Position numbers and translations under genes: made by a program. This document shows positions 3,038-46,156 of a stretch of DNA of 64,000 nt, one piece after another (position 1 is the stretch's first letter; every line of letters begins with the position of its first letter). The notes under the pieces are model-generated. The model saw only the letters and a program-made list of their open reading frames with translations. It did no database searches and was not told the DNA's origin. The stretch lies in contig JBEWZL010000077.1 in the NCBI GenBank assembly GCA_045837725.1, positions 620,001-684,000 on the forward strand, written 5' to 3'. Origin of the DNA: Vermamoeba vermiformis (lineage: Eukaryota).

Positions 3038-6000
3038 TTAAGCGTTTAAAGTCGTAGAGGCTTCCGTAGCGGCGACAACTTTTGGAGTGGGAATATTTTC
3101 AACACTTTCCTTCAGATCTGACCAAAAACGTTAGAATATATGGAAAATATTATATGCGTGTATAATCTTAAACTTACCTTTCTTTTCAGAAAGTTCGTCT
3201 TTCTTTTCGGATGTTGAGTTGGAAGTGGTTCCGTTTACTTGACTCTTCTCAGCATGTTCCTTATTAATTTGAATATCGACGTCTTCTTTTTCCTCTGAGG
3301 AGTTGGACTCGTCGATTGATAAGTCCTCGTTGTCCTTGTCAACATACTGTTCGATGTATTCGTCTCGTTTCTCGACAGGCAAGAACGGATTATCCGAAGT
3401 GACGAGCTGTTCAATAGTTTGTTTATGAAACGGATGTTTCTTTGTTTCAGTTTCGACCTGAGCGAGAGTAGGTTTGGTGAACCTCCGCAACTCCCAGGCC
3501 CACTGTACGGCCCAAATAGATAAAGGACGCATGTAGCCGATAGCGCGGTATCGGCCTTCAGTGTCCCATGCCTATAAAAGGAAATCGCTATTAGTATCGT
3601 TCTATACACTAAAGGTGTCAGCTACAACATGCCACGTGCCACCACGATCGTTGAAAATTCTCACGCGCAGGAAAAAATGAGTAAAAAGTACGTACCTCGG
3701 GTGTCTGGAAAGCATAGCCTTGACGATAGTAAGTCACATCGACAACGCCCTTCAATGTTTTGAAACCTTCTTCAATGAGGCCTTCCTGGATCATAGCCCT
3801 ACGAACAGATTAAGTTAATATTGTGAGGTTCAGTGAACCGTTGATAAAACTTACGCGGCAACGCCGTAAGTAGTGCCAGTCCAAACTTCAGCAGATTGCA
3901 TGCTAGATTTGTCAACAGAGCCGCTCAATCTCATGCCGTTCATAGCACCCATCGTTCCGTTCTTGAACTTCATGACATTGTTTTCAAAGATTGTGGCCAA
4001 TGCTTTACGTGCATTCTCGGGCGGAACAACGTCACCGAGACCACAAGCCTTGCTGTACCATTGACCGGCCAACATGTCCGCTTGAATGGAGTCAAAGTGC
4101 TTGCTCTTAGACTCGTCGTAGTTGTAGTAACTTCCATTCCAAAGCTTATGTTCGTAGACGTCCTTCGCCTTGTCAAACCACTCGGTGTAATGTTGCTTCA
4201 ATTCCTCTTCTTCAAGAACTGACGCCATTTGTGCCATGGCCTTGAGCGCGGCAAGCCATAAACCACCGCAATAGGCACTGACTCCTGTGGCTGCCCAAGC
4301 ATCGTACGTTTGATCGGGAAAACCTCCGTTCTCGATCATGCAATCACCGTCCGTGTCAAATTGTTCCGAGTAACGCATGACTTTAACCATAATGGGCCAC
4401 AATTCTACGAAGAAAGAGGTCAGATCAAGTTTCGTTTTTAAAAATCTCCGTGATTTTTTTACCTTTCAAGAATCTCTTCTCGCGGGTCACGTAATAATCT
4501 CGGTAGATTTGCAAAACAAACTTTGAGTTTAAATCTTTCCAGTGGTCAATACGTTGGAAGTTGTACGCGTTTGGCAACTTGAACGGATCTTCGCCAGGAT
4601 TGCCGATGTCGTGCGGAACACAGTCCTTGGCCTTACGCTCCATCGTATCGCCGGTATGCAGCGCCATTCTTTGCGTCGGAATTTCTTCTAGAGTGGCCTT
4701 CCCAATATCGCGCTAAAAGATCGCTCATGTAAGTCACCATATAAGGCAAAAAAAGTATCGTAAAGGTACACACCTGCAATGACAACTCCAACATGGGCCA
4801 TAACATTGCCAGAGCAAAAGAGGCGTAGAAATGCACGTCGTACGTGTTTAACATCAAGTATTCGTGGCCTTCCAAGTAAGCAAAGTGACCCATATAGTTC
4901 TCTTCCGACTGACAGTGCTTGCGTTCGGTTTCTGGATCCGCTGGACATCCGTTCGTCCAAATGGTACCACCATCAGTAATAAAGTATAATTCGTTGAATA
5001 ATGCCATTTTGTAGTAATGTGGCATCTCAGGATCTAAATAAAATGTCAATCTATGCACGTTCACTGAAAATTTATCAACTTACCATTAATGATTGGATCT
5101 TGCCATTTTTCGATTTCTTTCTCCCATTCACGCCAAGAATAGATCGCATCTTGAGCAATTTGAACAGCAGCATCACCGTCTGTACCATAGAAGCGAGTGT
5201 ACCGACGGTAATATGCATTGCCAGAATAAAATCGGATCAAGGGACAATCCCAAGACAAAGCGAATTCAAAAGTAGCTGTTTGGCCTGCTTTGACCTAAAT
5301 AAATAATAATTAGATTTCACGTAATTATTTCAAATTTAAAAAATGAATACGCACGACTTTCTTGATCGCAACAGCAGATGCGTAAATTTCGCCTTTTTGA
5401 GAAACATCGGACTCTTCTTCTTTAAAGTCCAAGACGCCAGAGTCTGAAAATTGTTGCCACAAGTTCTCAGCAGAAGTTTTATCGTTCGCGAGCCACTTTG
5501 ATTTGAACGAGACCAGCGAGTCTTTGTCCTCCTTGTCGATCTTAGTAACGACTGCAAAAGACAGCGGGTCTCTGTGAGTGACGTCTGCCGGCTTTGCCTT
5601 CTTGCCGTTCTCCGTGACACTTGCCACTTGACGCGAGGTCTGGCGCCAATCGTGGTTCAACAGCACACCGCAGATTTCATCGAAGTTCTCGACGACATCG
5701 CGCTTGGCTTCTTTATCTTCGACAGGCAGAATACGTTCAGTGTTGACGATATCGTGCTCGTCAATGTTGTTCTTGGCTCCATTGGCACCGCACGACTCGC
5801 TGTTGCATCCACCGTTCTTGTCGTTCGAGGTGTCAATGTTGTTGTTCTCCATTTCTTCCTTGGATTGTTTTTTGACCTTCTGTCTGAAGCTCTTATTCTG
5901 GTGGCCGGCTTCTTTGTCAACTTGATCGCCTGTGCCGTTCTGCCACGTGAACATGATAGACACCTCTTTGTCGGTTTGTGAGGTGTTTTCCTTTAACGAG

Positions 6001-7448
6001 TTAGGCCTATATTAATATGGTAATATGAAGTACTTACCACCGTCCATACGAAGACACCAACGGGGTAACTGCTTTCCTTGTAGTTGTGAGGTAAAATAGG
6101 CGACAACTGCTTGCACGTCACTTTCAAGTCTGGATCCGGCTCGCCGTTGTAGACATTCCAAGAACGCGGAAACAAAGCGTGATACTCGGTATTATTGCCT
6201 TGAATTCCATTCCAATTCCACGATTGCAACGGTGATTTCTGCACGGAATTAGATTTTGACACTTTGACACGCGTCATGTTTTAAAGATGTCAACACTTAC
6301 CTTATCCAAATCCTTTCTTCCGTTTAATACAGCAGCACGTTTCTAAGAAAGGATTGTTAGCGAAAATTGGTTTGTTTGCAAGACAAAAAAATTATCGGAG
6401 AAATTCACTTACGCCGTCCGGAAGCACCTGATATTTCTTCTTTGACTTTTTGGATCTCTTCTTAGTTTTTCTTTTTAACTTGCCACTAGCGGTCATTGAG
6501 CCACTAGCACTCAGAGAGGCGCTAGAATTTAAAGAGCTTGGACCACTCGCAGTTGATCCTGAAGTGTCCGATCCAAAACTGCTATCCTTTTGGCAGACAA
6601 TAGGTGCGCTATATATAGAAAATTGATTGGCATCCACGATTCGGTAATTTACAATGCCTCCAGGAACTAAAGTCCATCTGACAAAAAACAAGGTTAAAAT
6701 TCAAATATTTTTAGGTCGAAAAGCAATTTCCAAATACCTGCAGAAGTCGCCTCGCCAGCCTCTATTAATAGCACCGCTTCCAATGCCACCGATCGGCACA
6801 CCCATGATAGATCCTAAAAAGGAAAATCAGCAACAAATTCAACTGAACAAAGTCCGTTACCAATTTAATGGTAAATCCTCAAATATGCTGCGTAACATCA
6901 AGGGTAAAACATGCAGCCAATAAGGTATCGCGATAAGATCATTCTATCGAAATTTCAAGTTTTGCAAATCCGGATGTGTTATTATTACGAGCTGAATCAA
7001 TTATTAATACGCACCAATGGGCTTCAATGGATCTACTAGAGGATCCATCATAGGCAATCGCCCCTCGGAGCGTTCTTGTTTAATGTAGCGCCATAAACGC
7101 CAAGCTGATTTTAACATGGAAATGGCTTGCATCGGAGTGACCTAATAGTATTATATATAATTACTATACGTGAAAAATACCATTGTGTACTGATAATATA
7201 GAGAATTATGATGTACAAAGCGAGTTAATAATTTTTTAATAATTTTTAAAGACAGATCCGAAAGTTCTCGTTTGACACGGCCTTACCTTAAATTCCTTTA
7301 CGGGCATTAATTCATCGCCATATTGTCTGACCCATGTGCACTTAGGAATGCCCTCGGGTCGCTCACCCTTCGCGTCAAAAGTATTTACGAGCGTATCCGG
7401 GTTTAATTTCGGAGCACCACTCGTCGTTGTAACATTCGTATTATTCAT
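3038..7448 (-). CDS. GBA2: Non-lysosomal glucosylceramidase (GH116, GBA2-like), multi-exon
   Basis: Motifs [84 protein letters not shown] and [11 protein letters not shown]. Confidence 0.95.
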
Positions 7449-20467: not shown

Positions 20468-21052
20468 TTGGTCATGAGAGGAGCCTGTATTACGATCTAT
20501 AGTTTGGCTAAAAAGACGAAAAAGCGACCCTAAAAAAAGAACAGAAACGAAATCATTTTGATACGCCTCGTTCAATGAAACAAACACAAATATATTGTTG
20601 TAACTCCACCCATAACATTTTAAATCATTCAATGGATTATTAATCGAGGAATAAACACTTGTGCACGCACCGCAAAGCGTGAATCTGAAACACATTATCG
20701 GACCAACCCGACTCAGTTCTTAAGTAAGCCCTATTATCCACCGTTTAATTTTCAATTGTAAAATTACATCATTCGTCATGTTGCGTATTTTATACTAATT
20801 TTTTTTTCTTTCTGGTTGGGAATTTGCTTCATTATTCGACCTAAAAATTACCATAAATAGACCATTACGCGACATTATTGCCGTATTCCCAACTCACGAT
20901 TTTTACGTGTGCCTTTTTGGCTAAATCCAAAAATTTACTGAAAATTACCTGCAATGCCCCTCGATTTTCTTGAGAGTGCCAGCGCCGTTTTACTCAATAT
21001 AAGATGTCGTTACGCGATTCGTTATTTCAATAACTTTATGACAATTGACAAC

Positions 21053-22087
21053 ATGTCTCGCATTAAAACTGCCTTCAATGCTACATCTCTGCGCCAATAC
21101 TTCGTTGAGTTCTTGGGCACGCTTCTCTTCGTGTTCATGGCCACCGGCGTCGTAGTGTCTACCACTTACGTTGGCGGAATGAACTCAGGCGCCATTGTGG
21201 CTATTGGCCTTGGATTCGGATTTAGCTTAGCGGCGATGATTTTCGCAGCTGCTAATTACTCAGGGGGTCATATTAATCCAGCAGTCACTGCTGCGTTTAT
21301 GGTGACAAACGACATTCACTTCTTAAAAGGCATCTTCTACATTCTATCGCAACTCGCTGGAGCAATGGTCGGATCTGCTTTACTTCGTGCAACTACACCA
21401 GAAGTTGGTAAGCTCGACATATCTCAATATATGACCCACCTTTGTAATGATACTCATAACTTTTGTTTTAAGCTTGGAGAGCTGCCAACTTGGGCGCAAC
21501 GAAAATTAGCGCAGATCTATCTCTCGCTTCTGCGGTATTCTTCGAGTTGATTATCACTTTTGTGCTCGTGTATACCGTGTATACTACCGTAGATGTACCT
21601 AAAAGTAAGTATTAGGTTGCTTGTAGCTTCAAATTTATGTGCGCATGATCTCGAACCAAAAACTTACCGTTACAACAGAAAAAGATGGTGGTGTTGGCAA
21701 ATTGGCTGCTATGGCTGTTGGTCTCGCTGTGCTTGCTTGCCATTTAGTAGGAGCACCATTCACTGGTCCTTCACTGAATCCTGCTAGAAGTTTTGTAAGT
21801 GTCAAGGACGCGCCACATCCAGGGAAACACAGTTCCAGCGCTTTCTATACTAGTATAGCGCTCATAATGCTAATTGTTCGCTATCTCAGGGACCTGCAGT
21901 CGTGTCGGGCTATTGGCAGAATCACTGGGTCTATTGGGTCGGTCCTTTGGCCGGCGGAATACTCGCGGGCGTGATCTTCAAATACATCTTGATGAATAAG
22001 ATGCCGTGGCAGCAGAACCCTAATTCAACGCAGTCTACTCAACCCGATAAGGCTGACGAAGATAAACAAGGAGATGAAATGGCTTGA
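21053..22087 (+). CDS. Aquaporin / major intrinsic protein, multi-exon
   Basis: EFLGT, SGGHINPAVT, GPSLNPARSF and HWVYWVGP motifs, including both NPA boxes. Confidence 0.95.
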
Positions 22088-25500: not shown

Positions 25501-25825
25501 AATATAGCCAATATATGTTTGATGAGTAGTAGCTAATGTTACGCGTCTAGGACAATTGCAAACTATGGCTGCTTGGATGCGAGATTTTATCACCAAGCAT
25601 CCGGACTATCAACACGACTCAGTTGTTAGCGAGTCAATCAACTACGATCTTGTTAAGACTTGTTTGAAGGTATGCAACTCATCATATATTAGCGGTTATT
25701 ATGCAGAGCTAACAGACCGAATCTAGATCGTGAACCACGAGGAAGTGGAGTTGGCCAAGCCGTTGTTGGGAGACTTGTACAGCGACTCTGTTAACAATAA
25801 CAACACGAACACCGGTTCGAACTAA
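22530..25825 (+). CDS. GCLC: Glutamate-cysteine ligase catalytic subunit (eukaryotic type), multi-exon
   Basis: [61 protein letters not shown] and [31 protein letters not shown]. Confidence 0.97.
23358..23422 (+). other. GC-AG intron in GCLC
   Basis: AG|GCAAGT donor, CTGAC branch-like site and TTAG acceptor. Removal gives [19 protein letters not shown], matching GCLC. Confidence 0.8.
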
Positions 25826-26002: not shown

Positions 26003-28406
26003 ATGGATCGGTTCTTCGCTCTTGCATCTTTGACATCTACAGGAGTCGGTAGAATAGCGCTTACTTATTACTTTCTATCGCTTCTAAATACGCCATTATT
26101 ATTATGTATGCTACTTTCAGTCTCATTAGCACTATATGGTGGTTTACAAGCGTGGATGTGCGTACCCAATCCAAGTAACGAAGGCTCCAGGCGCTTGTCA
26201 TTCGAGCTGGTAACTTATAATGCCATGGAAATATTATTATTGGGATTATCGGCAGGCCAAAAAAGCTTATTGGACATGGCATTGGTGCAGGTATGAGAAA
26301 GTTATTAATTTCATAATAATAAAGCCACAATAATTTAAGAGATAAGAGTTAAACTAGGCATATCATTATTTAAATATATACTATTTAATTCGATTCAGAT
26401 TTAATATCTATCTACGTTACTAAATGCAATCTTTTTACAGCTGTTGACACTTTTCGTCATAAACGCTACAACAAGAGCAGATCTAAAGTCAATTAAATAT
26501 CCAGTATCAGTGCTTGCAGTAGTACTTGGAGTTTTAGTATTGACTGTCGACAAAAACTTGGCGTTCTTTCCTCGAGTCGAAACAGTTGCTTGGAGCGTAG
26601 TTACCATTGATATACATTCACATATCATTCAAAATGGCAATTCTTTATCACAACGAACAATTTTTCAGTCGGAAGCAGTTGGCGCGGTCGTGTCATTCAT
26701 GATCTCGTCGCTGATCTGGGTCAACAATGTGGAGCGCTTACAACTTTTGCCCGTTGAATATGACATGTACTCGACACTGCTGCTTATTGCCGCGACAGCT
26801 GGATTGGTCCATATAACATTCAAGCGGCTGACAGTCACGTTGCCGAGACGGATTCAAAACCCGATCCAACCAGCAACCACCTTCGTATTCATTTCAATAG
26901 CTTCAGCGATCATTTACAGTATTAATCATAACAAAGAGGTTTCATGGCCCGTAATAGCATCGATTGTCATGTTAGCGACTGGAGCGTATTTGTCAGCAAG
27001 TGCCAGATCCGACGTTCGACCATCAGTTCTTCGAGCCCAACGATACGAAGAGCAATCAATTTCATTCATTAGAATAGCGGTCCTCATTGGCGTTACATTT
27101 TTAATACTCTCGACGTACTCTACTGCAACTATCAATGCCGAGATCCGCTCAAAGTTGAGCAACAGGACCGATGATGAATATCTCACGATCGAGGATGATT
27201 TTGACACGAAGACGTATATACCCACAAATATCAATAATATTACATATGACACGTCGCCTAAAGAAATCGAGCGTCAAGAACAGCGCGAGCAATGTTTTAT
27301 CAAAACACACAAGTTGATCATGGACACTGTATTTCCGCTAATTCCGCGCAACAAAAACTTCACGGCGGTAGATTTCCCGATGAATTGGGACCTTGGTTAT
27401 CAACAGATTTGGGTTGGGCAAGAACGCTTGTGGCACATCTACGGTCAATTCCCGCTACGCATGCCAGCGATGAATCAACGTGATATTCCTTCCATTGAAG
27501 AGGTAATCGTTATTTTATTTATCATAATGTTAAAAATAAGTTACTAATTGGATGAATTTGTAGTTCCTGAAGGACGGAGCAATTTTCTTGCCTGGTGGAA
27601 GCAATTTTGGTGATTTGAATGAGGATGCGATGGAGTACAAATTATCAGTTTTGAAGTCCCACGCTGGTAATCCCATCGTTTCGTTGCCGCAAACGATGCT
27701 TTTTTCATCCAACGACAAAGTTGCAAAGCACAAGTCTGCAATCAACTCGCACAACCAGTTGACATTACTATGGCGAGATCAAGAGTCGCTTCAATTGGCT
27801 AAAGAGACTTACAACAATGTTAAGTCTTTGTATTGCCCTGACATGGCCTACACGCTTGGTCCAACCCTGCCAAACAGCTTGCCACAAATCGATGTGATCT
27901 TCGTGATTCGACGCGATGCCGAGAAGACCGCTAGTACCGCAGACATAGCTAAGGCCAAGAAAGCAGTAGAAGATGCCGGCCACACTGCAGAGGTATGGGA
28001 TTTCCCGACTCAAGGCTACCCTATGTACGAAGACAGTACGACAAAGGAGGTGGTCTACGACTATAGAAAAATTTTGCCTGGAAGAATTGCCCCGAAAAAT
28101 GAGCCCAATAACGAGCTCTATTCAGAATTGCGCCTTCAAGTCGGAATGAATTTGATTAGCCGCGGAAAAGTCATCGTTACAGATCGATTGCACGCGTTGA
28201 TTATGGCACAAATGATTGATCGACCTGTCATTTACTTTGACACCAAGTACAAAAAATTGACACGTGTCAGAACAGCTCATGTCAATGCAGTCAAGGAGTG
28301 TCAAGATAAGGTCTTCAATTCCAAGAAAGTCCAATCGATCAACGAAGCCGCTAAAAAATCCATCGAATTGATGAGCGGATCCAGCAAAAAAACACCTTCA
28401 GTGTAG
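26003..28406 (+). CDS. Fusion protein: multi-pass transporter-like N-terminal domain plus polysaccharide pyruvyltransferase (Pvg1/EpsI-like) domain, copy 1
   Basis: Three exons join in phase 0 (LVQ|LLT and IEE|FLK). About 10-11 hydrophobic segments precede GGSNFGDL, LPQT, WRDQES, CPDMA, RRDAE and VTDRLHALI. The pyruvyltransferase call is strong; the transporter call is tentative. Confidence 0.8.
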
Positions 28407-28482
28407 AATATAGTTCTAGTTGTAAATAATAGCTTTCTAATTTTAATAATTCATTTTGTTTTGTTCTGACTTCCACGACGCT

Positions 28483-29405
28483 TTAGCTATTAATTTTTTT
28501 AGCTACGCCGATCATGCGAATATTTTCGGGCTTGGCGTTGTATTTGTCCATGAATTCATTCAATTTGTCCAATATCGATGTGTAACAGCGCCGTTTTGGA
28601 ATCTCCCATGATAACACATAAATGCCTGTCCGAGTCTGTATACTCGTTGTGAATTCTGCACCTTGTTTTTTAAGCTAAATAATAAAATTACCGTCCGTAT
28701 ATGATATATAAAATTATATGATGATTATTTACGTCTTCAACTGTAGTGTCAAGATCTGCAGGTTGAACCATCGTTCCGGCTTTAATACTCGACTCCCAAC
28801 CTCTCCTGCATCACATAACCATTTAAAATGAATCAATAATTAATTAAAGTATTGTACTATGGCTAATTACCAGTCTAAAATCTCTTTAAATGTCAAATAA
28901 GAAATTCCGGTGACTTGAGGCAACGTCGGCTGGTTCCAGCTAGCTATTAGTTGTGATATATCGTCTGATGCATCAATGGGTGCGCCTCTTAGTGGCGCAA
29001 TTGAAATATCATCGGAGCTGGGTAGATTTGGTTAAAAAGGGTTGAGATCTAATTTTAAAATGAAGAGCGTGCGTAAAATTTAAATAATAATTAAATAAAT
29101 AAAAATATGTATGATAAATGCAGATTAAATTACTAAAGTTCTCCCACTGGAAAGAGCAGAATGGCCTCTTTTTTTCTTATAATAATTGAATCTTCTGGGC
29201 TTGTATTCCAATATTCTACGCCATTTTCATTTAATAATTGGAGCCTTGTAGGGCATTCCCACGATTTTATGATCTTGTTTTGGAGCTCTGTAGGCAATTT
29301 GGTCACATCCAATTTACATTCGCTGATTTTTAGTTTACATAATGAGCTGAGTGCGAGAATATTCGGTCTAATCTCTATAAATGCATATATTGTCGTGTTG
29401 TTCAT
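28483..29405 (-). CDS. Small 4-exon hypothetical protein with SOCS/BC-box-like segment
   Basis: Exons splice in frame via GT-AG: MNNTTIYAFIE..LSSLCKLKI..LPTELQNKII..| SDDISIAPLRGAPIDAS..SYLTFKEILDW | RGWESS..| ..KPENIRMIGVAKKINS*. Confidence 0.6.
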
Positions 29406-29647
29406 GTGTTTTCCTGTGCAGTATCTGGTGGAGAGTAATTTTTTTTTTCAGTCCATTTTTGACCCGAGATCAAGCCCCCACGCCGGGCTTGACCCAATAA
29501 TTGGCATAATTAATCAGTTGAAGTAGTAATCAAATGCCGAATTATGAACATGTTACAGTAGGAAAATGATCGGCTTCGAATTGTTATTGTGAATTTTGAG
29601 TTTTCCGAGATTTATTTACAAGTGTTTGCAGGTGGTATTTAATAATA

Positions 29648-32073
29648 TTAATACAATAGATCTTTTTTCAAGGTAATGAATTTGATCGCTTTGTTGACAG
29701 CGTTCTTTGCAGACTGCTCGTAGAACATATTGAACGCTGAATCAGTGCACTCTCCAATCACTTGCGTCAATTGTTTTCTGACGGGCTCGTTTTTGCCACT
29801 TTTTTCGTTGATATAAACAACAGGCTTATCCATTAAGTTTGCTATAATAGTCGCATGCAATCGATCGGTCACGATGATTTTTGCACGACTGAACAAATTA
29901 ACGGCAATTTGCAGTCTGTATTCAGGCGCAATATCCATATTTTCTTCCTTCTTTTCTTTCAAAATTAATCTATTCGGAAATACTCTCGAATAATTATACC
30001 AGACGAATTCTTCGCTGTCCTGGTACACCGGGTATCCCTTAAAAGGAAAATCCCAAGCTTCAGCGTATAGCCCTTGTTCTTCAATTGTGCCAAGTAGTGA
30101 CTTGATATCGCTGTTTGATTGCGTTCCTTCGTTGTCTCGGCGGAACAACAGCAAGATGTCAATGTACGGCTGCGAGTTGGGGAAGGTAGGACCAATCATC
30201 CAAGTCGTGTCAGGCACGTACATCACATTGGCTGTCGTAAAATGTTTCTTCGCGAAATCGATCGATCCTTGGTCTTGCAACAAAAGTGTCAACTTTTCGT
30301 GTAAATTGAACGCTTCAATTTGGTCCGCTAGAAGTGTTGGATCTGATTTTCCGTAGTTAATGATATCAGGCATAATCACTACTGGGTTGTATTTAAACAT
30401 ATCAACGACTCTAGTCTTCAAACGAGCTCTGTCAGCTGAAGCATCATTCATTGTTCCGCCGCCAGTCAAGAAAATTGTTCCGTTTCTCATATGCTGATCT
30501 CGATACTAGACACGATCTTGATTAGTAATATATCACGGAATATATTTGCTTTTCGGCTTACTCTCTTCAAGTTCGTGGTACTATTGAGTTCCCAAGCAGC
30601 TTCAAATCGAGCGGGAAATTGTCCGTACACGTGCCACAACTTCTCTTGTCCGAGCCACACAACGGCGTCGGTAATGTTGTAATTGTACGCGTAGTCCATG
30701 GCTGTAAAGTTGGCGTATCGGACGATCAATGACGTGACTTGCTTGATGATGTACTGCCGTGTCTTGTGCATGCATTGGTACCGCTGTTCTTGTCGTGCAA
30801 TCTCCCCGGGAGATATGTCGTATTGAATGTCAGTGTAATTGTATCTCGATTCTTCAAATAGATCTGCAAATGGAGATGTTGTCGAATTTGACTTATTCTC
30901 TTCGACATTGAACACCACGGAATTTATCGTGGATGAGCTGTAACCGACCAATAATAAGAAGGCAAATCCTATGACTGCAACGGTCTTGACATTCGATATA
31001 GTGTCGTTTGCACGAGCCGATTGAATGTTGTTGTGATGACTTTCGTTGACCACGGGAGTTGTCAGGTACGCGCCAGTGATGAACATTGCAGCTGCTATTA
31101 TCGACTGAGGCGTGACTGTAGTGGCGTTCATAGCGACAGATATGACTAAGGCGACGAGTACTAGCAGTGTTGAAGTTGTTTCGCGGAAAGAGTGCTTTGG
31201 GATCTGATCCGCCAAGCGGTTTTTGCCGAACAAGAGAGCTCCGACAGCCAGGGCTTTTATGGACAAAGAAGACAAAGAATCCGCTGGCAGTTTGACCAAA
31301 TATAATCGCTCGCTATTATTAACCCATACCAATAAGGATAAGACGAAAGCCACAATTGATCCAAAAATTTCGGATTGGAGATGCGATCTTTCGGCATTGG
31401 GAGTTCTTCGTTGAGTATTGATGGCATTCAAATCGGATGATGCCACGCTCCATATAACAGCAGCAAAGAACGGTAAGCCACCAAAAGTGAAGTGAGAAGT
31501 GTACAGGATGTAGCATCCAACCGAAATAATTAAAAATGCGATGCCGTTACGAAGGGTGAACTTGATTTGCGTGGATTTGGCCATAATATTGATGAAGAAC
31601 ATCGACAAAAGCTAAAAAGATACGAAGGTTAGATTTGGTGTACGGTATGAGGTACATCCGGATCACAAACTAAAGTAAAGCTTCGAAATTTATCCGAACG
31701 GGACCCATTAATATAAGCATAGTTAATAAGTCATATTTAACGTTACAAGCTCGTACAAATGTCATTTAAAGTTGGATGAACGTACCTGTACCAGAACGAA
31801 GGAAATTAAATTCGGATCCTTCAGCGCAAAATTTAGAAAAATTATATCTAGAGCTGTATAAGCAATGTGGTGCATGGAGGGCTGAACAGGATGTTCTGCT
31901 GATGTTGTTGGCGTCATCATCCAAAGTTGCGCCAATCCAAAAACAGCCAAAGTTGCCGAAACCACGATTGATAAGAGCAATGGGGTAGCCATGGTAGATA
32001 AGAAATTATAGGACAAAAGTAGCCGTCCGACGCCCACGGCAAAAAGAGAACCGAAAGCCAATACTCGATCCAT
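29648..32073 (-). CDS. Fusion protein: multi-pass transporter-like domain plus pyruvyltransferase-like domain, copy 2
   Basis: Paralog of 26003-28406 with shared motifs MDR..A, QSE, WVNN.ER, RQEQR.QC, WH.YGQFP, E.WDFP..GYP.Y and VTDRLHA. It has the same two intron positions. Confidence 0.8.
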
Positions 32074-36182: not shown

Positions 36183-39100
36183 TTAAGCGTTATTGTTTTG
36201 ATAGAACGGGTTAGAGCCTTCTTGGAACTTGCTCTGGTACAACGCAGAGGTCGTAGTCGCGTTCATGTTGCTCGTCAAGTCCTCGAAGTAGTTGTCAACT
36301 TGTTGGTTCTTCTTGCGTCTCAAGCGCCAGACGAGAACTGCGACACCAGCTACGGCGGCACCAGCAGAGACTGACAGAGCGATTGTCAAAGTGTTGTCGG
36401 GAGTGGTGGGAGTGCTGAGAAGGCCAGTGTCTTGCGCGATCAAGATGGTGAAGTTGAGCTGAGCGGACATAGCAGTGTTGTTCCAACCGATGTGGCCCAA
36501 GTCATCAACCACGATGGAAACAGGGAGCGATCCAACGCTAGGAGTGACGAAGTACAGAACGGGCATTAACGTGCGAATCTCAACTTGTGAAGTGGTGCAG
36601 TTGACGGTGATTGCTTCAGTTCCGTTGATGAACGTGCACGGATTGAAGGTGGACACGAGATCAAAGTAGCCAGCGGGGTCTTGAACTGTGATGAGCAAGT
36701 TGATGGGCTTGAGACCGCTGTCAATGTCGGCAACCACAAAGGCACCAAAGCCAGTGCGGGACAAGCCACTGTTGGAGTCTTTGACAGCTGTCACTGAAGT
36801 CGAGTTGGTCGAGATTGTAGGCGCGTCATTGACTGGGCGAACACGAATGATGGCGCGAACAAGACTTGAAGGAGCTTCAAAGTCATCATAAGCTTGCACG
36901 GCGAAAGTGGCAAAGTTTCTGTCGTCGTAAGCGTTAGGATCAGGCACGAACAACACCTTGAAGATGCCGGGAGTGATGGCAGGGACTAAGGCAGGAGGGA
37001 CGATCTTTTCGCCACGAGCGCACTCGTCTCCATTGCTAGTGTCGCAGAGGTACATCGCAGCATTAGCAGGCAATGTCGAAGTGATCTTGGTGGTCAAGCT
37101 GTCAAGAGGCGAGTCGATGTCGGTGACGTTCCATTGGAGCACGTATTCAGTGTCTTCGTCCATCACAACACGCTGAGGAACAACGTCGTAGAAGGGCACA
37201 ATGACTGGAGGATCGTTAACAGGAGTGACGTTGATGGTCACTGTGTAAGTAGCGCTCTGGAGGCCTTCGGAGTCGTACGTCACGAATGAGTACGTGGTGT
37301 AGTTGTTGCCGTTCTCGTTGGGCAAAGGAGTGAACAGCACTTGATGGAGCAAGTTCTCAATGTAGTCGCCGTTGGCAACAGGGATGCGGTTGCAAGGCTC
37401 AACATCGGCTTCACACACAAAGAGCAAGCCCTTGGAGACAGTTTGAGTGACACGCACTTGAGCAGGAGGCGGTGAGTCGGGATCGCGAATCGCTGCACCC
37501 AAGTTCATTGTGAGGGTAGCGTCTTCGTCACCAGTGAAAGTGAGAGGTCCGTTGTATGCGGCTGGTTTGTTGATGTGGTTCACGAACACCAAGGCAGTGT
37601 AAGTGGCAGCACTGATGCCTCCTTCAGTGTCGTACACTTGGAACTTGAGTTTGGCAAGAGGAACATCGTCAATCGTGTAAGTGTTCAACACAGGGACGTA
37701 ATAGAAGGACTTGGCATTGTTGGGCAAGAAGGCGTTGGATTGCACAGTAGCTGTCATGCTCTCGTCAGTGTAGAGCGTGCCAATGGTCGAAGGATCGATC
37801 GACACAATCTTGATGGTCAAGTTTGCAAGGGGAGTCTCCAAGTCGATTGCTGAGAGCGTGACGAGTACTGGAATGTCTTCGTCAGTGTAAGTCACTGAGT
37901 CTTGACTCTTGGGCAAGGTGTTGCTGTAAGAGATGTAGATCAACACAGTGTAGACGCTAGAGTCGTTCGTTCCGTCGAACAATCTGAAGGTGAAGCGAGT
38001 GAAGGGAGTCGCGGGATCAACGTAAATGCTGTCCAAGTTGGGAGGAGTGTAAGTGAATGACACGGCACTGGCAGGAGATGATGACGTGGTGAGGTCCAAA
38101 GTACCAGCATCAACGTTAGAGATCACATTCAAGCTGATATCTTCGGGGTTATTATCGACGTCTTCAGCAACAAAGTTTGTGATGACAACAGGAGTGTCGC
38201 GCGAAGTAACAACGACCTTGTCAGCGGAGACTGGCGGATCATTCACAGCTTGCACGTGAATGGTAGCAGTGACAACAGACGAGGTAAGACCAGACGGGTC
38301 GATGGCGTACCAAGTGAAGCTGTCGTCGCCATTTGAGTTCAAGAAGGGGCTGTACGAGATCTGCGACGTCGAGGCAGAGATCTTTTGGCCTTGAGTCACT
38401 TTAGCGCCACCAGATGTTACTATCAATTGACCGTTTGAAGGCAACGATGCAATAACAATCTGGAGCTGTCCAACGGTGTTGTCGACGTCATTGACTGAGC
38501 TGGAGAACGACAGAGCCACAGGTGTGTCTTCGAGAGTGTTAAACTCAACGTCACTGGCGGTGGGCGGTTGATTCACAAAGTTCACATTGATAACGCAAGT
38601 GTAGATAGGAGACTCGTTGTTTAAGGCACCACTCGAGTCGCGAATCTTGAAAGTAAACGTCGCGTAAGGAGTTCCGTAGCCATTCAAAACAGGAACGAAT
38701 TGAAGGTTCCAAGAGTCAGAAGGGCTGAAAACTCGTCCGGCGGCAATGTTACCGTTGCTTGCATCCTTCAAAGTACCAATGGTAGGGAGCGAGACAATCA
38801 CCAAGGACAACGTGTCAATCGTGTCGACGTCATCAGCAGGGAATGAGCTGAAAGTGTAGGCGATGTTCTCGTTGGTGGTTACGTTGAGATTTCGTGAGCT
38901 TGGCGCGTGATTGACGTGGTTGATAGTGATAGGAACTGTCACCACCGAAGAAGACGCGGTCAGTACGTCTTGCACAACGTAGCTGAAGGAGTCAGTGCCG
39001 TAAGTGATCTTCTTCGGGATGTACACGAAGGAGAAGCTTGTCAAGCCGTTGCCTGCAGTACCAGCGTAAGGAGTGGCAGTGGCAACCGAAGAGTTGCTAG

Positions 39101-42100
39101 GAGATTGCAACAACGTGCCAAGTTGAGGCAGTGACACGAGCATAATCTTCAAAGTAGTCGCGTGCACGCTGGAGTCAACATCAGTGCCAGACAGAGTGAC
39201 GATAACGGAGGTATCTTCGTCCACTGTAACAGGGGAAGCACTTGAGGTGGGCGGGGTGTTGGGCGTGACCGTCAACTTGACGTTGACAAAGTTGCTTGCA
39301 GCTGATGGAGGCGGTTGACCGATATCAGTTGCAAAGATATTGAAGCTGATAACGAGGTTATCTGGCGCGTAGTCAGAGGCCATCCATGACATTTGGAAGG
39401 ACATGGCGCTGCCGGTCGGGTTAGCCATGTTGGACTTCAAAGTGAGTTGAGAAGCGGTGTTAGTAAGGGCAGTGCCACCAACTAACTTGACAACACCGTT
39501 GGTGGTGCTTGCAAGAAGGGTGTGATTGGCAAGGAACACGCTAATGGCATCACCGTCATCGACGTCTTGCACAGTGACAGTGAAGATTACGGCAGTGTTA
39601 CGAGTGGACACAACACTCAAGGGAGATACTGACACCACTGGGGCGTTGTTGACAGCAGCCATGTTGATCGTGACTGTGTAAGGTGTAGCGCTGAACAAAG
39701 CACCATCGAACACGTAGTAAGTGAACGAAGTAGCACCGTTCCAGTACTGCGTGGAAGAGAAGATGATGGTCTTGTTGGAGAACAATTGGTAAGGCGCGTA
39801 ACCAACAGTATCGCTTGGAGAGGCAATCAAAGAGCCTGCAGTAGACGAAGGCAAGCTGCTGAGTTGAATTTGCAGATCAGCCTTGGTATTGTCAACATCG
39901 TTGATGTAGCTTGTGAAGTCGATGATCAAAGGAACATCTTCGGAGCCATTAACAGTGAAGCTCGAGCCAGTGGGGGCTTGGTTGACAAAGTTGACGTTCA
40001 CTGTCACGTTATACTCAGGGGAAAAGGCGCCAGCTGAATCTTGCATCTTAAACGTGAAGTACGTGTAAGGTGTGCCATAACCGTTCAACACGGGGTTGTA
40101 ACGGATTTGCCAGCTACCAGCTGCGATGCTCGTAGGAACGGTCGAGTATGGAGTGCTAGAGGCAGCAGGCAGAAGGGATCCGAGTGGCGGCAACTTCGTG
40201 ATGATCAATGTGTGGGTGTCAATCTTGTCAGGATCGCTGACAGAGAACTGAGTAATGGTGTAGACTGTATTCTCGTCCAAAGTGATGCTGAACGGCGCAG
40301 ATGATGGGGCGTGGTTCACGTGGTTAATGGTAATGCTAACAGTGATCACGTTGGAAGTAGATCCAAGCACATCGGTGAAGTAGAACGAGAACGAATCAGA
40401 TCCGTAAGTGTAAAGAGTGGGGCGATAGTTCAACAAGTAGTACGTCGTGTTCGAAGTAGTGCTTGCAGAGCTCAGAGTAGTCGCAGTAGTGACGTCATTG
40501 CCGGCGTTGACAAGAGTACCGAGCTTAGGCGTGGTCAGCAAAGTCGCAACAAGAGTCGTGCCTTGACCAGCGTCAGGGTCGTAGCCTTCAATGCGAATGC
40601 CGCTGAACGTAGTGTCTTCGTTGGTTGTTACGGCTGTCGTCTGATAAGCAACAGGAGGCTTGTTCTGGCTGACAGTCAAACTGACAGTCACAGAGCTCGA
40701 CAGCGAGCCTTGATCAGCGACAGTGAGGGTTACGGCTCCAGAGAGCGTGTTTGATGAAGAGGCAGATGGAGTCCAAGTCAAGTCAATCTTCTTGGATGTA
40801 CCGTCGTTGTTCGAGTAAGTGATAACTGACACAACAGCCAAGTAACCAATGTTGGTTGCAGGAGAAACAACAGCAACAGCGCCGTCCGATGAAGTAACGT
40901 TGTTGCCCGAGGCCGTGACGGTCAGAGTGTCACCGACGTCAAAGTCTTGCACATAAATCGAGAAGGTGCGAGCAGTCAAGCGATCAGCAAGAACAGATGT
41001 GCTCGTAGAAGTGATAACAGGAGCGTGGTTGACGTGGTTGATTGTAACTTGAACAGTGTAAGTGGTAGCCGAGAAGAGCAAGCCATCAAACACGGAGTAC
41101 GTGAAGCTGATAGTGCTGTACTTGTACAACACCAAATTCAAGTACACGGTCTGACCGTTGAGCGTAGTACCAACTGACACGTCATCAGTAGTGCTGCTGG
41201 ATGATTGGCGAAGAGTGGCGTAAGTACTCGAGGGCAGCGAGTTGATGCGAATCTTCAAAGATGCCACGCTGTTATCAACATCAGCGATCAAGCTCGAGAA
41301 ATCAATTGTGATCGGAGTGTTCTCGTTGGTTGACAAGCTGGTGTTTGAGCCAGTTGGAGCCTGGTTGACGAAATTGACACTGATAGTTACAGTCGCAGTG
41401 CTTGAATCACTGTTGGCTGTACCACTCGAGTCACGGATCTTGAAGGTAAAAGTAGCGTAGTTGTCGCCGTAGTCATTCAAGCCAGGAGTGTATTGTAGTT
41501 TCCAAGAGACGTTAGGGGCGAAAACTTGGCCGGCTGAGATTGCACCACCAGTGCTAGTCTTCAGGGTGCCCTTCGTGGGAAGACTGACGATCACCAATGA
41601 CAGAGTGTCAATGTTGTCCACGTCGTTGGCAGGGAAGCCACCGAATGTGTACACTGTGTTCTCGTCAAGAGAGATAGCAAAATCGTTGGTAGTGGGGGCG
41701 TGATTGACATGAGTCACATTGATAGGAACGACTGTAGTGGCAGAGGAAGCGCCAAGAGGGTCAGTAAAGTAGAAGCTGAATGAGTCGCCGGGATTGTTCA
41801 AGTAAGGCTTGTAAGACACTGAGTAAGTTGATGAGCTTGCGTCAGTCGTGCTCGGGACATTGAACGAAGATCCAGCAGTGACTTGAGTGCTTCCGAACCA
41901 GAGCTCACCATTGTTAGGAACGGTGACAAAAGTAATGGACAAGCTAGTGGCTTGAACATTTGAGTCAGGATCAGTTCCCTTCAAGTTGATCGCGTTGATT
42001 GTCGTGTCTTCGTCAGTGGCAGGATTGTAGCTACCAACGACAGTGGGAGGTTGATTGCTAGCAACCTTCAATGTAACGCGAACAGAGGCGCTGGTGATTG

Positions 42101-45100
42101 AAGGAGCGGGCTGACCTTGGTCCTTAGCAGCCAAGTCAATGTAGGCGCTGAAGCTGTCAGGAGTGAGATCACCAGGGATCCATGTCAAACTAACACCCAA
42201 CGGAGAACCATTTGGATTGACAATAGTGTCAACATTTCGGTTGGTCAATGAGCCGCTATTGAGAGTAGTGCTGCCGTACTTGAGCGAACCGGTGGTTTGT
42301 GAGGGAGCCGCCAAGTTCGAGCCAACAATGACCAAAGTCAAGTTGTCGTACCAATCTAAGTCTTGCATGGTAGCCGTGAAGCTGCTGCCAGTAACTCTAC
42401 GTGCAGTAACTGTGGCAGGTGCAGAGATGGTGGGAGCGTTGTTAACAGGGTTAATGACGATTGTCACTGTCGCAGGACTGCTCGACAATTGCCCATCAGA
42501 CGACTGGTATCTGAATGTCGGGTTACTGAACCAGAGTCTGTTCACATAAGCAACAGGAACGAAGGTCACAGTACTGGTTGCAGAAATCTGGGTACCCACA
42601 GAAAGTTGAGTAGTGCCGACCATTAGTTTGCCCAATGAGGAATCAGGGAGCGATGCAATAATGATTTGCAAGGGACCATTCTCAACGTCAGCAATGTTGC
42701 TTGAGAACGGAAGAGTGACTGAAGTTCCTTCGTTCGTTGTGACAGTGAAGTCCGAAGCAGTGGGAGCTTGATTGACAAAGTTGACGTTGATAGTAGCAAC
42801 GAAAGTCCTTGAGTCATTCTTGCCGTCGTTGAACTTGTACTCGAATGTGGTGTAGGGCGATCCATACTCATTGAGAGCTGGGTTGTAGATCAAGCCAAAG
42901 TCTGACAGGGTAGCAGGCAGAGAACCGAGGGCGGAGCCGTCACTGCGCTTCAAAGTGCCCTTAGTTACCGACTTGGTGACGATCATAGTGATAGGGTCAT
43001 TATCAATGTCAGTTGCGCTGATTTGAGTGATCGTCAACTGCGCGTTCTCATCGACTGTCAAAGTCACGTTGCTGGAGGTTGGCGGGTAGTTCACAAAGTT
43101 CACCACGATGGTAACGGTGCCGACGGACGACTGCAACAAGCCAGTGTCTTGAGCGTAGTAGTTGAACGATGTAGTGCCATAGTAGTACTGAGTAGGAGTA
43201 AACAGCACTTGGTTGTTCAAGGCGGCGTTACCAGCGGACAGTTGAGTGGAGAGCGAAGCACCGCCAAACAACTTGCCAGCAGTAGATGAAGGCAGAGTTG
43301 ATAAATAGACTTGAGGAGTCGGACTGTCAATATCAGCGATGTAGTTAGCAAAGTTGATCGTGCGAAGAGCAGTGCTAGGCTCATCTCTGTTAATGGTGAT
43401 AGTGAAATTTTGCACGGTCGGTGCTCTGTTCACGTGAATGATGTTGACTTGAATAGAACCTGCAGTCGTTGCACAACCGTCATTAGCCAAGATAGGAATG
43501 GTAATGTTGCCGTAGAAGCCCGGCACATTTACGATGTTGAATAGCGTGGATGTAGGGTAAAAAGTGCTTGTGATGGCAGTTAAGCCGAAAGCCGTGGTGA
43601 TGACAGCATTTGAGGGAAGAGAAGTGAAACTGAAGCTCAGAGTATTCGAATCAGCATCAGTGATAGCGCTAGCGAGAGAGAACGTAAGCGAGCTGTCATC
43701 GTTGAAAGTCAAAGTCGTTGGCTGAATGACTGGAGGACTGTTGACAATAACGTTGACCTTGGCAACTCCGTAGCCCCAAATAGTGAAAGGGAAGACCATC
43801 GGTGACGCGGTAGGAGTTTGGCCAATCGGGAAGTTCATGGTGACGTTCAACCAGTTCACACCGAGAGAAGTAGAGGTGAGTGTCATCGGGGTAATCAACG
43901 AAGTCAAGCTGGGGTTAGAAGGAGTAATGGCAGCGTAGGTAGCAAGGGTTGCAATGAGCGAGTTGGCCCTAGTTGCAAAGCTCGGGAAAGTGGTTGTTTC
44001 GCCGAAGCCTCCGAAGGGAATGTTCAAAGCATTCCAAACGGAGGTGCTTCCAGTAATAGACACTCCAACAGGCACAACATTCGCATTTGATGCCGCGAGA
44101 ATGAATGAGCTAGCACCGGCAGAAAAAGAGTTCGGATTCTTGGTCACGATGACCAGAGTGGAAAGGGCAGAAACACCGAGGTTGCTTCTCCAACCAATAG
44201 TAGCCGTGTTGATGATTGTAGTGACAGGAGGAAGGATCGATGCAACAGTAGGAGTACCCAAAGCGGCGTTGTTAAATTGATTAACAATGCTCGTTCGATC
44301 GGTGCTGAGAGCAACGACATCCGTGGAAGTGCCGCGCAATACAGCGTAACCGACTTGAACAGTGGAGTAAGCAGATCCAACAAGGTTGACGAGAGCATTG
44401 AACTCAGTCCTATAAGTCATCGTTAGTACTTATATCGTGACGAGAGGAGTGCAGCTTGATCTTACTTGGCGGTTGACCATTCGGCCGCAGAAAAGCCTCC
44501 TGCATCGAAAGCAACGAACAAGTCAAGACGGCGTGCAGAGTTGGCGACAACGTTGATGGAGAATGGAACCAACAAAGGAGAAGAGATCGTGTTGGACAAG
44601 AACACCGTGTAACTAGTAGGGTCCAACGTAGCGCTTGTCGTGACTCCAATCGGTGTACGAGTGAGGATAAAAGAACTAGTGTTGTTATTGCAAACTTTGT
44701 TCTCAAAGCCAGTGCAGCCAGAAACTTGGTAGTTAGATCGAAGCAAGATGCGGTACTTGCAAGGCGTTGTTGAAAGCGGAGCGTAGCAAGTGTTATCTTG
44801 AGAGAAGGTGTTTACACCGATCGTAGCCGGAGAACAGGGCGCTCCGGATGGAAGATAACAAGCCCCGTTAGCCATGATCAAAAACGAAGTGGATGCTGAT
44901 CCCGACCAGACGAATTTGCTTGAACCAACAGCAGCAAGGTCGGCAAGAACGTTAGTAGTCGGACTGGCAATGCTATATCCAGCGGGAATCCGGATAAACG
45001 AGGAACAAGCTAAAAATAGGAAATTTAGCACTTTGCGGATAAATTCCCAGTGATTACACATTAATCTCACCTTGAGAACCGGATGCTTCCAACAACGCGT

Positions 45101-46156
45101 ATTGATAGCAACTGCTGGTGGCCGTCGTGAGTAATGAGCCGGCAAGACAACCTTGCACAGTGCCTATCAAAAAATTAATTTACGTTAATACCCGTTAACG
45201 CTGCATCCGATAAATTACAATTTGTTAATTAACTTGTTAGTGATAAAAATTAGTGCGGATATTTTATCTTACCGTTAATAACCGGCGGAATGGGAGTCGA
45301 ATTGAAAGATCCGCTGACCATGTTGAAAAAGAACATTACGTCGTTCTGCAATAACTGTAAGTAAAGTTTTTGATGTAAAGATAATATATGACTTACGTAA
45401 TCGGAATCACCAAGACTGCCGTCTTCGAAACCGAAAACGACGCGATCGTTGAACATAGCCCAACTTGTGTGCTTGTATCCGTCATAGTTTGTGATTAAAG
45501 GGGTGGTCAAACTGTACAATATCGACCTTGTAGCGGTGTTCACTGGGTTAGTATTGTTGGTCCAAGCGTTTACGAGGATATAGAAGCCGATGATGGTGTT
45601 GGCTGGGAACGGGCCAAGTGTCACTGTATAGCCTGCATTCATGCAGCCGGCAGGGCCGTAGACAGGGGCCACGTCCTTCAACAAATTGTAGAGCAGGATA
45701 GGTCCGGGAGCAGCAATGCCTCTGGATGTTTGATTCAAAATGAAGTAGCCGAACGAGTTTCTGTTGCCCGTGATTGACAGAATGTAAGTCAAATTGAACA
45801 CGGCGTTATCGCTAGTTGTCTGGAGATACACGTCCGTGTTCGTGTTGATGATTAAAGGGTTCGGTTTTAGCGTTTCAGGAAAAGTGTTGCGGATCGTTGC
45901 AACGAAATCTGAAGTGACCGCAGGATTCGGGAAGATGTTGGAAATATTGACCGCAGAACGCTCTAGATTTAACAATATAAAGATTAAAAATTGCCGCGTT
46001 GCAATTTATGTGGTTTATAAACTTACGATTAGCAACGCACATTGACCAACTGATTCCATTAGCAAAAGTCACGTTAGTATACTGCCCGTTCAGTATTTGA
46101 GCGTCGGAGCTTGCAATCCAAAAGATTACTAGAAGCAACGCATAATGGATCCGCAT
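36183..46156 (-). CDS. Giant (~3200 aa) type I membrane adhesin, Sib (similar to integrin beta)-like: signal peptide, DUF4114-like segment, VWA-like domain, ~21 cadherin/Big-like repeats, TM and NPxY tail
   Basis: Signal peptide MRIHYALLLVIFWIASSDA, GFEDGSLGDSDYNDV after splicing, LDLFVAFD VWA-like strand, N-x-[AP]-P..DxD repeats, TM SAGAAVAGVAVLVW and tail ..SALY..NPFY. The terminal exon is 36183-44409. Confidence 0.85.
38240..43092 (-). repeat. Coding higher-order repeat: 4-domain unit of about 1.39-1.40 kb, ~3.5 copies
   Basis: Equivalent repeat starts NYPP/NHAP..[DN]EN fall at ~43092, ~41705, ~40316 and ~38912. Each of these domains ends in VNFVNQ. Confidence 0.75.

Follow-up and report, generated by a model that had tools for sequence, protein, structure and literature searches.

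We analyzed a 64,000-nucleotide (nt) stretch of Vermamoeba vermiformis DNA (GenBank assembly GCA_045837725.1, contig JBEWZL010000077.1, positions 620,001 to 684,000 of the forward strand), which is referred to here as the window and whose first letter is position 1 in all coordinates given below. The window contained a convergent pair of three-exon genes, gene A on the plus strand (26003-28406) and gene B on the minus strand (32073-29648), and each gene joined a ten-helix membrane domain to a pyruvyltransferase domain. The gene models were built from stop-to-stop frames plus sequence reading, and splicing yielded products of 730 and 731 amino acids (aa), respectively. An initial annotation of the locus had proposed a fused machine that imports phosphoenolpyruvate (PEP) and uses it to pyruvylate glycans in the secretory pathway, with surface or cyst-wall glycans as the suggested targets. 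Its coordinates, its helix count and the peptides that it quoted were correct. Hydropathy and the helices in AlphaFold models indicated ten membrane helices up to about residue 285, and the tenth helix contained IASIVMLATGAYL in A and IIAAAMFITGAYL in B.

In gene A, exon 1 (26003..26290, +; residues 1-96) runs from the ATG at 26003 to a donor GT at 26291 and encodes helices 1-3 and the start of helix 4. Intron 1 (26291..26440, +; 150 nt, GT..AG, phase 0) was missing from P0001, a transcript open reading frame (ORF) described below, and the exon 1/2 junction (LVQ/LLTLF) agreed with P0001 and with a second transcript ORF, P0010. Exon 2 (26441..27502, +; residues 97-450) starts in helix 4, continues through an 11th helix and a stem, and ends ~75 residues into the pyruvyltransferase domain. 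Intron 2 (27503..27563, +; 61 nt, GT..AG) has a TACTAAT-like branch site, and the exon 2/3 junction, IEE/FLKDG, corresponded to VQE/FLKEG in P0001. Exon 3 (27564..28406, +; residues 451-730 plus the stop codon) encodes most of the pyruvyltransferase domain.

Gene B is laid out in the same way. Exon 1 (31786..32073, -; residues 1-96) has its ATG at 32073-32071 and a donor GT at 31785, and it is followed by a 174-nt intron 1 (31612..31785, -) whose position and phase are those found in A. Exon 2 (30562..31611, -; residues 97-446) is a single open frame that covers helices 4-11 and the stem and reaches into the enzyme. Intron 2 (30506..30561, -; 56 nt) has the same branch-site spacing as its counterpart in A; an alternative acceptor 12 nt downstream is likewise in frame. 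Exon 3 (29648..30505, -; residues 447-731 plus the stop codon) encodes a divergent pyruvyltransferase domain.

The initial annotation had described the arrangement as being present twice, and the comparison of A and B bore this out. Both introns, which are short and have GT..AG ends as is usual in eukaryotes, were located at identical codon positions and phases in the two genes. The spliced products were 35% identical over 733 columns (blastp E 3e-154), the membrane part being 32% identical and the remainder 40%. Because the identity extended from end to end at this E value, a chance resemblance was excluded. The best explanation is that A and B are old paralogues in a Vermamoeba-like amoebozoan. 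In a relative represented in JGI data, A-type and B-type fragments shared the longest-contig sizes of 484847, 387026 and 35474 bases, which suggests that the paralogues are linked in that organism too.

The closest long relative was P0001, an ORF of 732 aa that is marked "complete" and belongs to a Trinity transcriptome listed in EukProt under the name Vermamoeba vermiformis. Spliced A and P0001 aligned from the first to the last residue with 80.5% identity and 2 gaps, and this end-to-end alignment confirmed both splice junctions of A. A second cluster (75% identical) contained three uninterrupted 732-aa ORFs (P0010, P0012 and P0014) on contigs of 2310-2385 bases. Other members of this cluster read through the second intron, and the cluster looks as transcripts and genomic copies of one gene would. 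The fusion is also independent of splicing, because exon 2 of A is by itself one open frame that begins in helix 4 and reaches the enzyme's N-x-G-D region. We regard as solid the architecture in which the membrane domain and the pyruvyltransferase are encoded as a single polypeptide; the initial annotation had claimed as much, and both the junction inside one exon and the full-length ORFs on transcript-sized contigs of relatives agreed with it. Two B-type orthologues, P0127 and P0016, were 66% and 68% identical to exon 2 of B; no B-type orthologue that reached exon 3 was found in the searches for relatives.

The second half of each protein belongs to the pyruvyltransferase family PF04230. Against a cutoff of 25.3 bits, exon 3 scored 63.2 bits in A (E 4.7e-17) and 46.5 bits in B (E 6.1e-12); P0001 scored 61.5 bits, and the relatives also passed the cutoff. 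The sole solved relative found by sequence was Pvg1p of Schizosaccharomyces pombe (PDB 5AX7), which matched at E 4e-11 when P0001 was used as a single sequence and at E 1.8e-65 when a profile of the nearest homologues was used. Thus, the catalytic domain is related to Pvg1, as the initial annotation had said. The amoeba proteins and Pvg1p share the PF04230 domain (in the amoeba proteins, predicted to lie in the lumen), the Arg and His of the TDRLH motif, the Lys of a GK motif, a cysteine pair, and an anchor helix followed by a stem. The same annotation had the domain ending in VTDRLHA; this motif was present in both genes, but it is not the end of the domain, of which about 70 residues follow.

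Outside the fusion family, the nearest relatives of the enzyme domain were soluble bacterial pyruvyltransferases of 320-360 aa, which were 23-34% identical over 58-99% of exon 3 (106 matches, all PF04230). This group, which includes CsaB, proteins named EpsO or EpsI, and proteins of Rhizobium, Sphingomonas and Gemmatimonadota, shares the motif set of the amoeba domain. In contrast to the amoeba proteins, its members are cytoplasmic and have no membrane domain, no stem and no cysteine pair. In prokaryote genomes, 531 enzyme-domain loci were confirmed, and Rhizobium, Sphingomonadales and Gemmatimonadota were frequent in the best 80 of the 531. A scan of viral contigs with the enzyme domain returned two distant phage-type loci.

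To compare individual residues, we used an alignment of 36 bacterial homologues and 5 eukaryote-type rows, namely, three A-types, B and P0023. P0023 is a 404-aa fragment (33% identical) in which the enzyme domain is preceded by a membrane helix and a stem, and its ORF fills the whole contig; it may be a more distant eukaryotic relative. P0023, which is truncated where its contig stops, starts with a hydrophobic stretch ahead of the anchor helix and may be another fusion.

The membrane domain of A (26003..27007, +; residues 1 to ~285), which is split by intron 1, was delimited via hydropathy and model helices. It is followed by the 11th helix (27059..27127, +; residues 303-325), which is preceded by an Arg-rich loop with five lysine or arginine residues (K+R) and is predicted to lead the chain to the lumen; the 11th helix of B occupies 30925..30981 (-; residues 307-325). 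Next in A is an acidic stem (27128..27277, +) with the sequons NRT at residue 337 and NIT at residue 362. When the K+R residues in loops on the N-terminal side were compared with those on the opposite side, the ratios were 15:4 in P0001, 15:5 in A, 14:4 in P0010 and 11:3 in B. Judging from this bias over the eleven helices, together with hydropathy and the model helices, the N and C termini of the ten-helix domain are predicted to be cytosolic, and the enzyme domain is predicted to be lumenal.

The enzyme domain itself gave a similar picture. Cys381 of A (27293..27295, +) and its partner Cys696 (28299-28301) correspond to the C68-C373 pair of Pvg1, which is reported to form a disulfide, and the counterparts in B are C376 and C699. 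The pair was found in all five eukaryote-type rows, whereas the first column held Cys in 2 of the 36 bacterial rows and the second in none of the 36. The amoeba cysteines are located 35 residues before the position of Pvg1 D106 and 38 residues after that of R337; the corresponding distances in Pvg1 are 38 and 36. In addition, two sequons (NIT/NYT and NFT) were conserved in the stem and domain. The initial annotation had named a cytosolic catalytic domain as a finding that would undo its proposal, and both the K+R bias and the Pvg1-like cysteine pair predicted the opposite location.

The membrane domain is probably more than an anchor, because it was conserved like the enzyme, because nearly all strain differences in it were at silent positions, and because it contained invariant polar residues. 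Between A and P0001, the membrane domain was 78% identical and the lumenal part was 82% identical. A strain that is ~96% identical to the window, represented by contigs of sequencing run X1, differed from A at codon position 3 in 26 of the 34 listed differences in exons 2 and 3 (37 more differences exist), in 20 of 22 in exon 2, and in 16 of 17 in the membrane part. The invariant polar residues were located in or at the ends of helices 6 and 7: a W-S-x4-D motif, whose Asp is in helix 6, a Gln that starts helix 7, and a W-x-N-N-x-E-R motif. The W-x-N-N element (26717..26728, +; W189-N192 in A) is at the lumenal end of predicted helix 7, and its Trp and both Asn residues, as well as the Glu and Arg that follow, were invariant in the family alignment.

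The Pet proteins of fission yeast belong to the TPT/DMT group of carriers. Pvg1p is reported to rely on Pet1p and Pet2p, which are separate Golgi PEP transporters, and the amoeba proteins would resemble this system in having a lumenal enzyme in need of imported PEP. The difference is that the amoeba chain has ten extra helices, while the yeast transporters are separate proteins. The reading that we put forward is that a carrier domain supplies PEP to the fused lumenal pyruvyltransferase, so that each chain would be a single-chain version of Pvg1p plus Pet1p/Pet2p; taken as a whole, this statement is tentative, and the balance tips somewhat against it. Each protein would be a secretory-pathway membrane protein whose ten-helix domain has both ends in the cytosol. 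The 11th helix would take the chain across the membrane to a short, acidic, glycosylatable stem and a lumenal ketal-pyruvyltransferase domain of the Pvg1 type, and the ten-helix domain would bring the donor PEP to the fused enzyme. PEP might be imported in exchange for the phosphate set free by the transfer reaction, in which case transport and catalysis would be stoichiometrically coupled. PEP import by the membrane domain is only something that we infer; PEP is the simplest functional link, because PEP is what the fused enzyme uses.

The same layout has been described for the bacterial AT3-SGNH O-acetyltransferases OafA, OafB and OatA (PMC9833829). Their ten-helix domain has its two ends in the cytoplasm, and an 11th helix and a linker then connect it to a catalytic domain across the membrane. 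According to the same source (PMC9833829), the membrane domain of these proteins hands the donor group across the membrane, and by analogy the amoeba proteins may work like them. The two families differ in that they are unrelated (hhalign P 0.14-0.19), the donor is acetyl-CoA and not PEP, and the AT3-SGNH proteins are bacterial and not eukaryotic. Membership of the amoeba domain in AT3 (PF01757) was rejected, as there was no Pfam match and hhalign against 11 AT3 proteins gave the P values just cited. A bolder version of the proposal would make the domain a new lineage-restricted DMT-like branch and a PEP/phosphate exchanger tied to its consuming enzyme, with the released phosphate driving the next import; the protein would be a eukaryotic counterpart of AT3-SGNH, and A and B, each of which is without a different invariant catalytic residue, would be partners. 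We consider this version unlikely.

The ten-helix domain itself is, with considerable room for doubt, probably a highly divergent DMT/SLC35-like carrier. The sole positive pointer came from ESM Atlas, a language-model search. With residues 1-330 of P0001 as the query, every row with a family among the matches listed belonged to the DMT clan (UAA, EamA, TPT, Nuc_sug_transp or SLC35F), scores were 0.91-0.92, and the first match shared 182 of 256 features. With helices 4-11 of B (~30% identical) as the query, 29 of the 30 matches were in EamA sets, with scores of 0.92-0.93 and 161-176 shared features. We treat this likeness as a lead of moderate strength. The domain also resembles DMT carriers (EamA, SLC35 and TPT) in its ten helices with ends predicted to be cytosolic and in its length of ~290 aa.

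Several results weighed against, or failed to back, the carrier reading or a working enzyme, and these are gathered here and in the following two paragraphs. In the ESM calibration, all ten matches agreed in a third of the shuffled proteins, and none of the calibration concerned protein parts. No DMT-clan Pfam family was found on the membrane part, either in four exon translations at E <= 1 or in five relatives at E <= 10, a result that does not exclude a very divergent DMT member. NCBIfam gave nothing credible on the membrane part, and a PDB sequence search with the membrane-domain profile gave 0 matches at E <= 10. The AlphaFold2 models were unusable, both for full-length P0001 without an alignment (predicted local distance difference test [pLDDT], 38.4) and for residues 1-338 with a 10-row family alignment (pLDDT, 39.6). 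A VIA-align search of 48,161 chains with the latter model returned only helical hairpins (best Z, 7.1), and because both models were unusable, this search says nothing about the fold. In hhalign comparisons with alignments of six families built from five bacterial genomes (EamA, AT3, FecCD, CTP_transf_1, MraY-type and BPD_transp_2), EamA was best and the others gave P 0.14 or worse; TPT was outside this comparison, since PF03151 occurred in 0 of the 5 genomes. The EamA result was unstable, with P 4e-4 to 2e-3 when 19 rows were used and 0.02-0.06 when 21 rows were used. When single sequences were compared, hhalign did not favor the 21 EamA proteins over 33 control proteins from five other membrane families (one-sided Mann-Whitney p 0.96). 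An internal 5+5 repeat was not detected when the N-terminal half was compared with the C-terminal half (hhalign probability, 0.2%). When the halves were compared with a shallow EamA half-domain profile (effective number of sequences [Neff], about 2), the C half gave P 0.0074 in global mode and the N half gave P 0.09-0.32; reversed controls gave 0.09-0.7. In short, the initial annotation's DMT/SLC35 fold was echoed by the ESM look-alikes, while the hidden Markov model (HMM), PDB sequence, repeat and single-sequence hhalign comparisons gave no sign of it, and the domain had no detectable sequence relation to any family, including TPT.

An anion carrier such as the plastid TPT is expected to hold PEP or phosphate via basic residues in the helix core or cavity. 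No invariant Lys or Arg was found in the helix cores in the family alignment, in which the invariant intramembrane residues were Asp, Gln and Asn, and this sits uneasily with an anion carrier. The GDP-mannose carrier Vrg4 is reported to read guanine with an FYNN motif on transmembrane helix 7 (TM7). The W-x-N-N at the end of amoeba helix 7 recalls this motif by eye; the likeness is a lead only, and if it points anywhere, it points to a nucleotide rather than to PEP.

The catalytic residues were the remaining concern. Pvg1 numbers were obtained by adding 53 to the 5ax7 chain index (R284 becomes R337, R164 becomes R217, and D53 of N-K-G-D becomes D106), and the PEP-binding residues R217, R337, H339 and K361 of Pvg1 are equivalent to R148, R306, H308 and K328 of CsaB. 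In A, Arg658 and His660 of VTDRLHA (Arg658-Leu-His660, 28185..28193, +) correspond to R337 and H339, Arg521 (27774-27776, +) to R217 and Lys681 (28254-28256, +) to K361. All four PEP-binding residues were kept in A and in the two other A-types, and three of the four, the equivalents of R337, H339 and K361, were kept in B. On the acceptor side, Tyr416 of A (27398..27400, +) takes the place of Pvg1 Asp106 in the N-x-G-D motif. All 36 bacterial rows have Asp at this position, as do P0023 and B (Asp411, 30667..30669, -); the three A-types all have Tyr. The A-types have D-L-G-Y instead of N-x-G-D, and the Asp three residues ahead of the lost one may take over its role. In B, Gln523 (30275..30277, -) is located at the PEP-binding position of Pvg1 Arg217 and CsaB Arg148. 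Arg occupies this position in all 36 bacterial rows as well as in P0023 and the A-types, and only B has Gln. The D106A substitution is reported to leave Pvg1 almost inactive, and the R148Q and R148K substitutions are reported to abolish all activity of CsaB. At the 30 columns that were invariant in the 36 bacterial rows, A differed at 5 (including the D106 equivalent), B at 12 (among them the R217 equivalent, the Gln of LPQ, and CPDMA) and P0023 at 1; P0023 retained the cysteine pair and both residues that are absent from A or B. The catalytic competence of A and B is uncertain on these alignments. The A-type appears to be the likelier working enzyme of the two, because all four of its PEP-binding residues are kept, and B looks like a degenerate or repurposed copy, although B is itself conserved, given the 66-68% identity of its exon 2 to orthologues. 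The pyruvylation machine of the initial annotation had the enzyme family and the predicted lumenal location in its favor; the Tyr of the A-types, the Gln of B and the 12 deviations of B, none of which that annotation had noted, weaken it.

Four other explanations were weighed against a fused PEP carrier and pyruvyltransferase. One is that a membrane-protein gene and a gene for a type II pyruvyltransferase lie head to tail, are expressed separately and were joined by a gene-model artefact. This explanation gains from the fact that no read of the window's own organism bridged the exons. Contigs of run X1 covered the A exons piecewise at ~96% identity and bridged no intron, and three RNA runs with the same species label, from which 17, 23 and 45 reads were placed, had next to none on A or B. 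Nearly all of those reads were at the 3' end of the upstream gene (25700-25805) and had loose ends and a likeness of 90-99%, so a diverged strain or species, rather than the window's own, seems to be the source of the three runs. Against an artefact, the fusion point is located inside one stop-free exon in each gene (open frames 26405-27547 around A exon 2 and 30487-31611 in B), the arrangement has been kept in both paralogues at 35% identity, and the whole fusion is contained in P0001 and in three further 732-aa ORFs. We consider an artefact highly improbable. It is improbable, to a much lesser degree, that ketal pyruvylation is no longer the function of one or both catalytic domains, with B being a pseudoenzyme or a regulatory or lectin-like partner and A having a changed reaction or acceptor. 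The deviations from the bacteria-invariant columns, of which P0023 has just one, and the reported loss of activity in the corresponding CsaB and Pvg1 mutants argue for such a change. However, A retains the equivalents of R217, R337, H339 and K361 and has the Asp three residues before the lost one. Moreover, the enzyme domain of A is under selection, as judged from the conservation of the Tyr in all three A-types and from the 82% identity of the domain in A and P0001; in B, the membrane part and stem are 66-68% identical to those of its orthologues.

The other two explanations concern the role of the ten helices. They may form a lineage-specific module that is no importer and that anchors, sorts or oligomerizes the enzyme or presents a lipid-linked or membrane-bound acceptor glycan, with PEP entering via a separate TPT-type carrier as in S. 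pombe. The standing of the domain as a sequence orphan fits such a module. Specifically, residues 97-326 were compared exhaustively with 1.84 billion representatives by HMMER, which returned 5 proteins at E <= 0.001: three real family members (the window's own protein, one B-type and the 123-aa P0019, a third membrane-domain type that is 28% identical) and two repeat proteins whose matches were due to chance. Two more members, one A-type (57%) and one B-type, came from a profile search, making five relatives in all. At the level of sequence, the domain is an orphan whose relatives belong only to its own family, and metagenome contigs scanned with two profiles, that of the A+B membrane domains and that of the B-type, yielded no relative, nor did viral contigs. 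Source names of "dolichol kinase" and "apolipoprotein N-acyltransferase" on membrane fragments contradicted each other, had no Pfam or NCBIfam support (CTP_transf_1 hhalign P >= 0.17) and were set aside as annotation noise. The missing family, PDB sequence and fold matches, the negative or unstable EamA tests and the helix cores without an invariant basic residue also fit a nontransporting module, as does the reported requirement of CsaB and WcfO for acceptors linked to a lipid through diphosphate (lipid-PP), given that the nearest relatives of the enzyme domain are bacterial (23-34% identity). On the other hand, a plain anchor takes one helix, and one is what Pvg1 is reported to have. Ten extra helices that are 78% identical between A and P0001, with 16 of 17 listed strain differences at silent positions and with invariant polar residues, point to a specific activity, and both ESM queries pointed to DMT-clan carriers. 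We regard a nontransporting module as somewhat unlikely. Alternatively, the domain may be a DMT/SLC35-type carrier for another solute, for example, a nucleotide sugar for the residue that is later pyruvylated, so that the fusion would couple two successive steps. The ESM look-alikes were mostly nucleotide-sugar and EamA carriers rather than PEP carriers in particular, the W-x-N-N near the end of helix 7 is invariant and recalls the FYNN of Vrg4, and noncovalent assemblies of Golgi transferases with nucleotide-sugar carriers have been reported (PMC6453868). However, no GALNK-like motif was seen to go with the four-residue likeness to Vrg4, and the fused enzyme uses PEP and not a nucleotide sugar. 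Another solute therefore seemed quite improbable to us.

A full-text literature search, with most subscription journals outside its coverage, turned up no description of a pyruvyltransferase fused to a multi-pass or carrier domain, in keeping with the initial annotation, and nothing on pyruvyltransferases in Amoebozoa. What appears to be new here is the fusion of a multi-helix membrane domain to a pyruvyltransferase; the pyruvyltransferase family itself was already known. Golgi enzymes that modify glycans need carriers for their lumenal donors, and whether carriers and enzymes are physically coupled is a standing question in glycobiology. If a fused PEP carrier and pyruvyltransferase is correct, then a natural single chain of a carrier-like domain and a pyruvyltransferase would be a "Rosetta stone" for carrier-enzyme coupling and a compact module for engineering a sialic acid-like negative charge onto glycans. 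Pyruvylation, for which fission yeast is the main eukaryotic example known, would also be extended to amoebae that act as hosts of bacteria and giant viruses in the environment. If the membrane domain is no carrier, it would still be a conserved ten-helix domain without known relatives that is joined to a known enzyme.

The end of a glutamate-cysteine ligase gene (25526-25726, +) lies directly upstream of gene A. The other neighbors identified were likewise ordinary eukaryotic genes, namely, a GH116 glucosylceramidase-like gene (3851-6011, -), an MIP aquaporin gene (20942-21550, +) and an ADP-ribosylglycohydrolase gene (59957-60613, +). The scan covered the long open frames, and these showed no further glycan-pathway gene and no DMT carrier. 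In the region between A and B (28700-29450, -), an X1 contig skipped 28805-28869, a segment with CT..AC ends. Read on the minus strand, this is an intron of 65 nt with GT..AG ends, so it seems that a small spliced gene sits there; its open frames had no Pfam match. Beyond gene B, the region 36183-44429 (-), together with 44462-46005, contained an uninterrupted 2748-aa open frame with bacterial cadherin-like, Big_9 and SibA-like immunoglobulin (Ig) domains. The G+C content of this stretch was 0.49-0.50, with a GC skew of +0.2, compared to a G+C content of about 0.37-0.42 around it, and the giant frame looks like a bacterial-type adhesin gene within the amoeba contig, possibly acquired by gene transfer.

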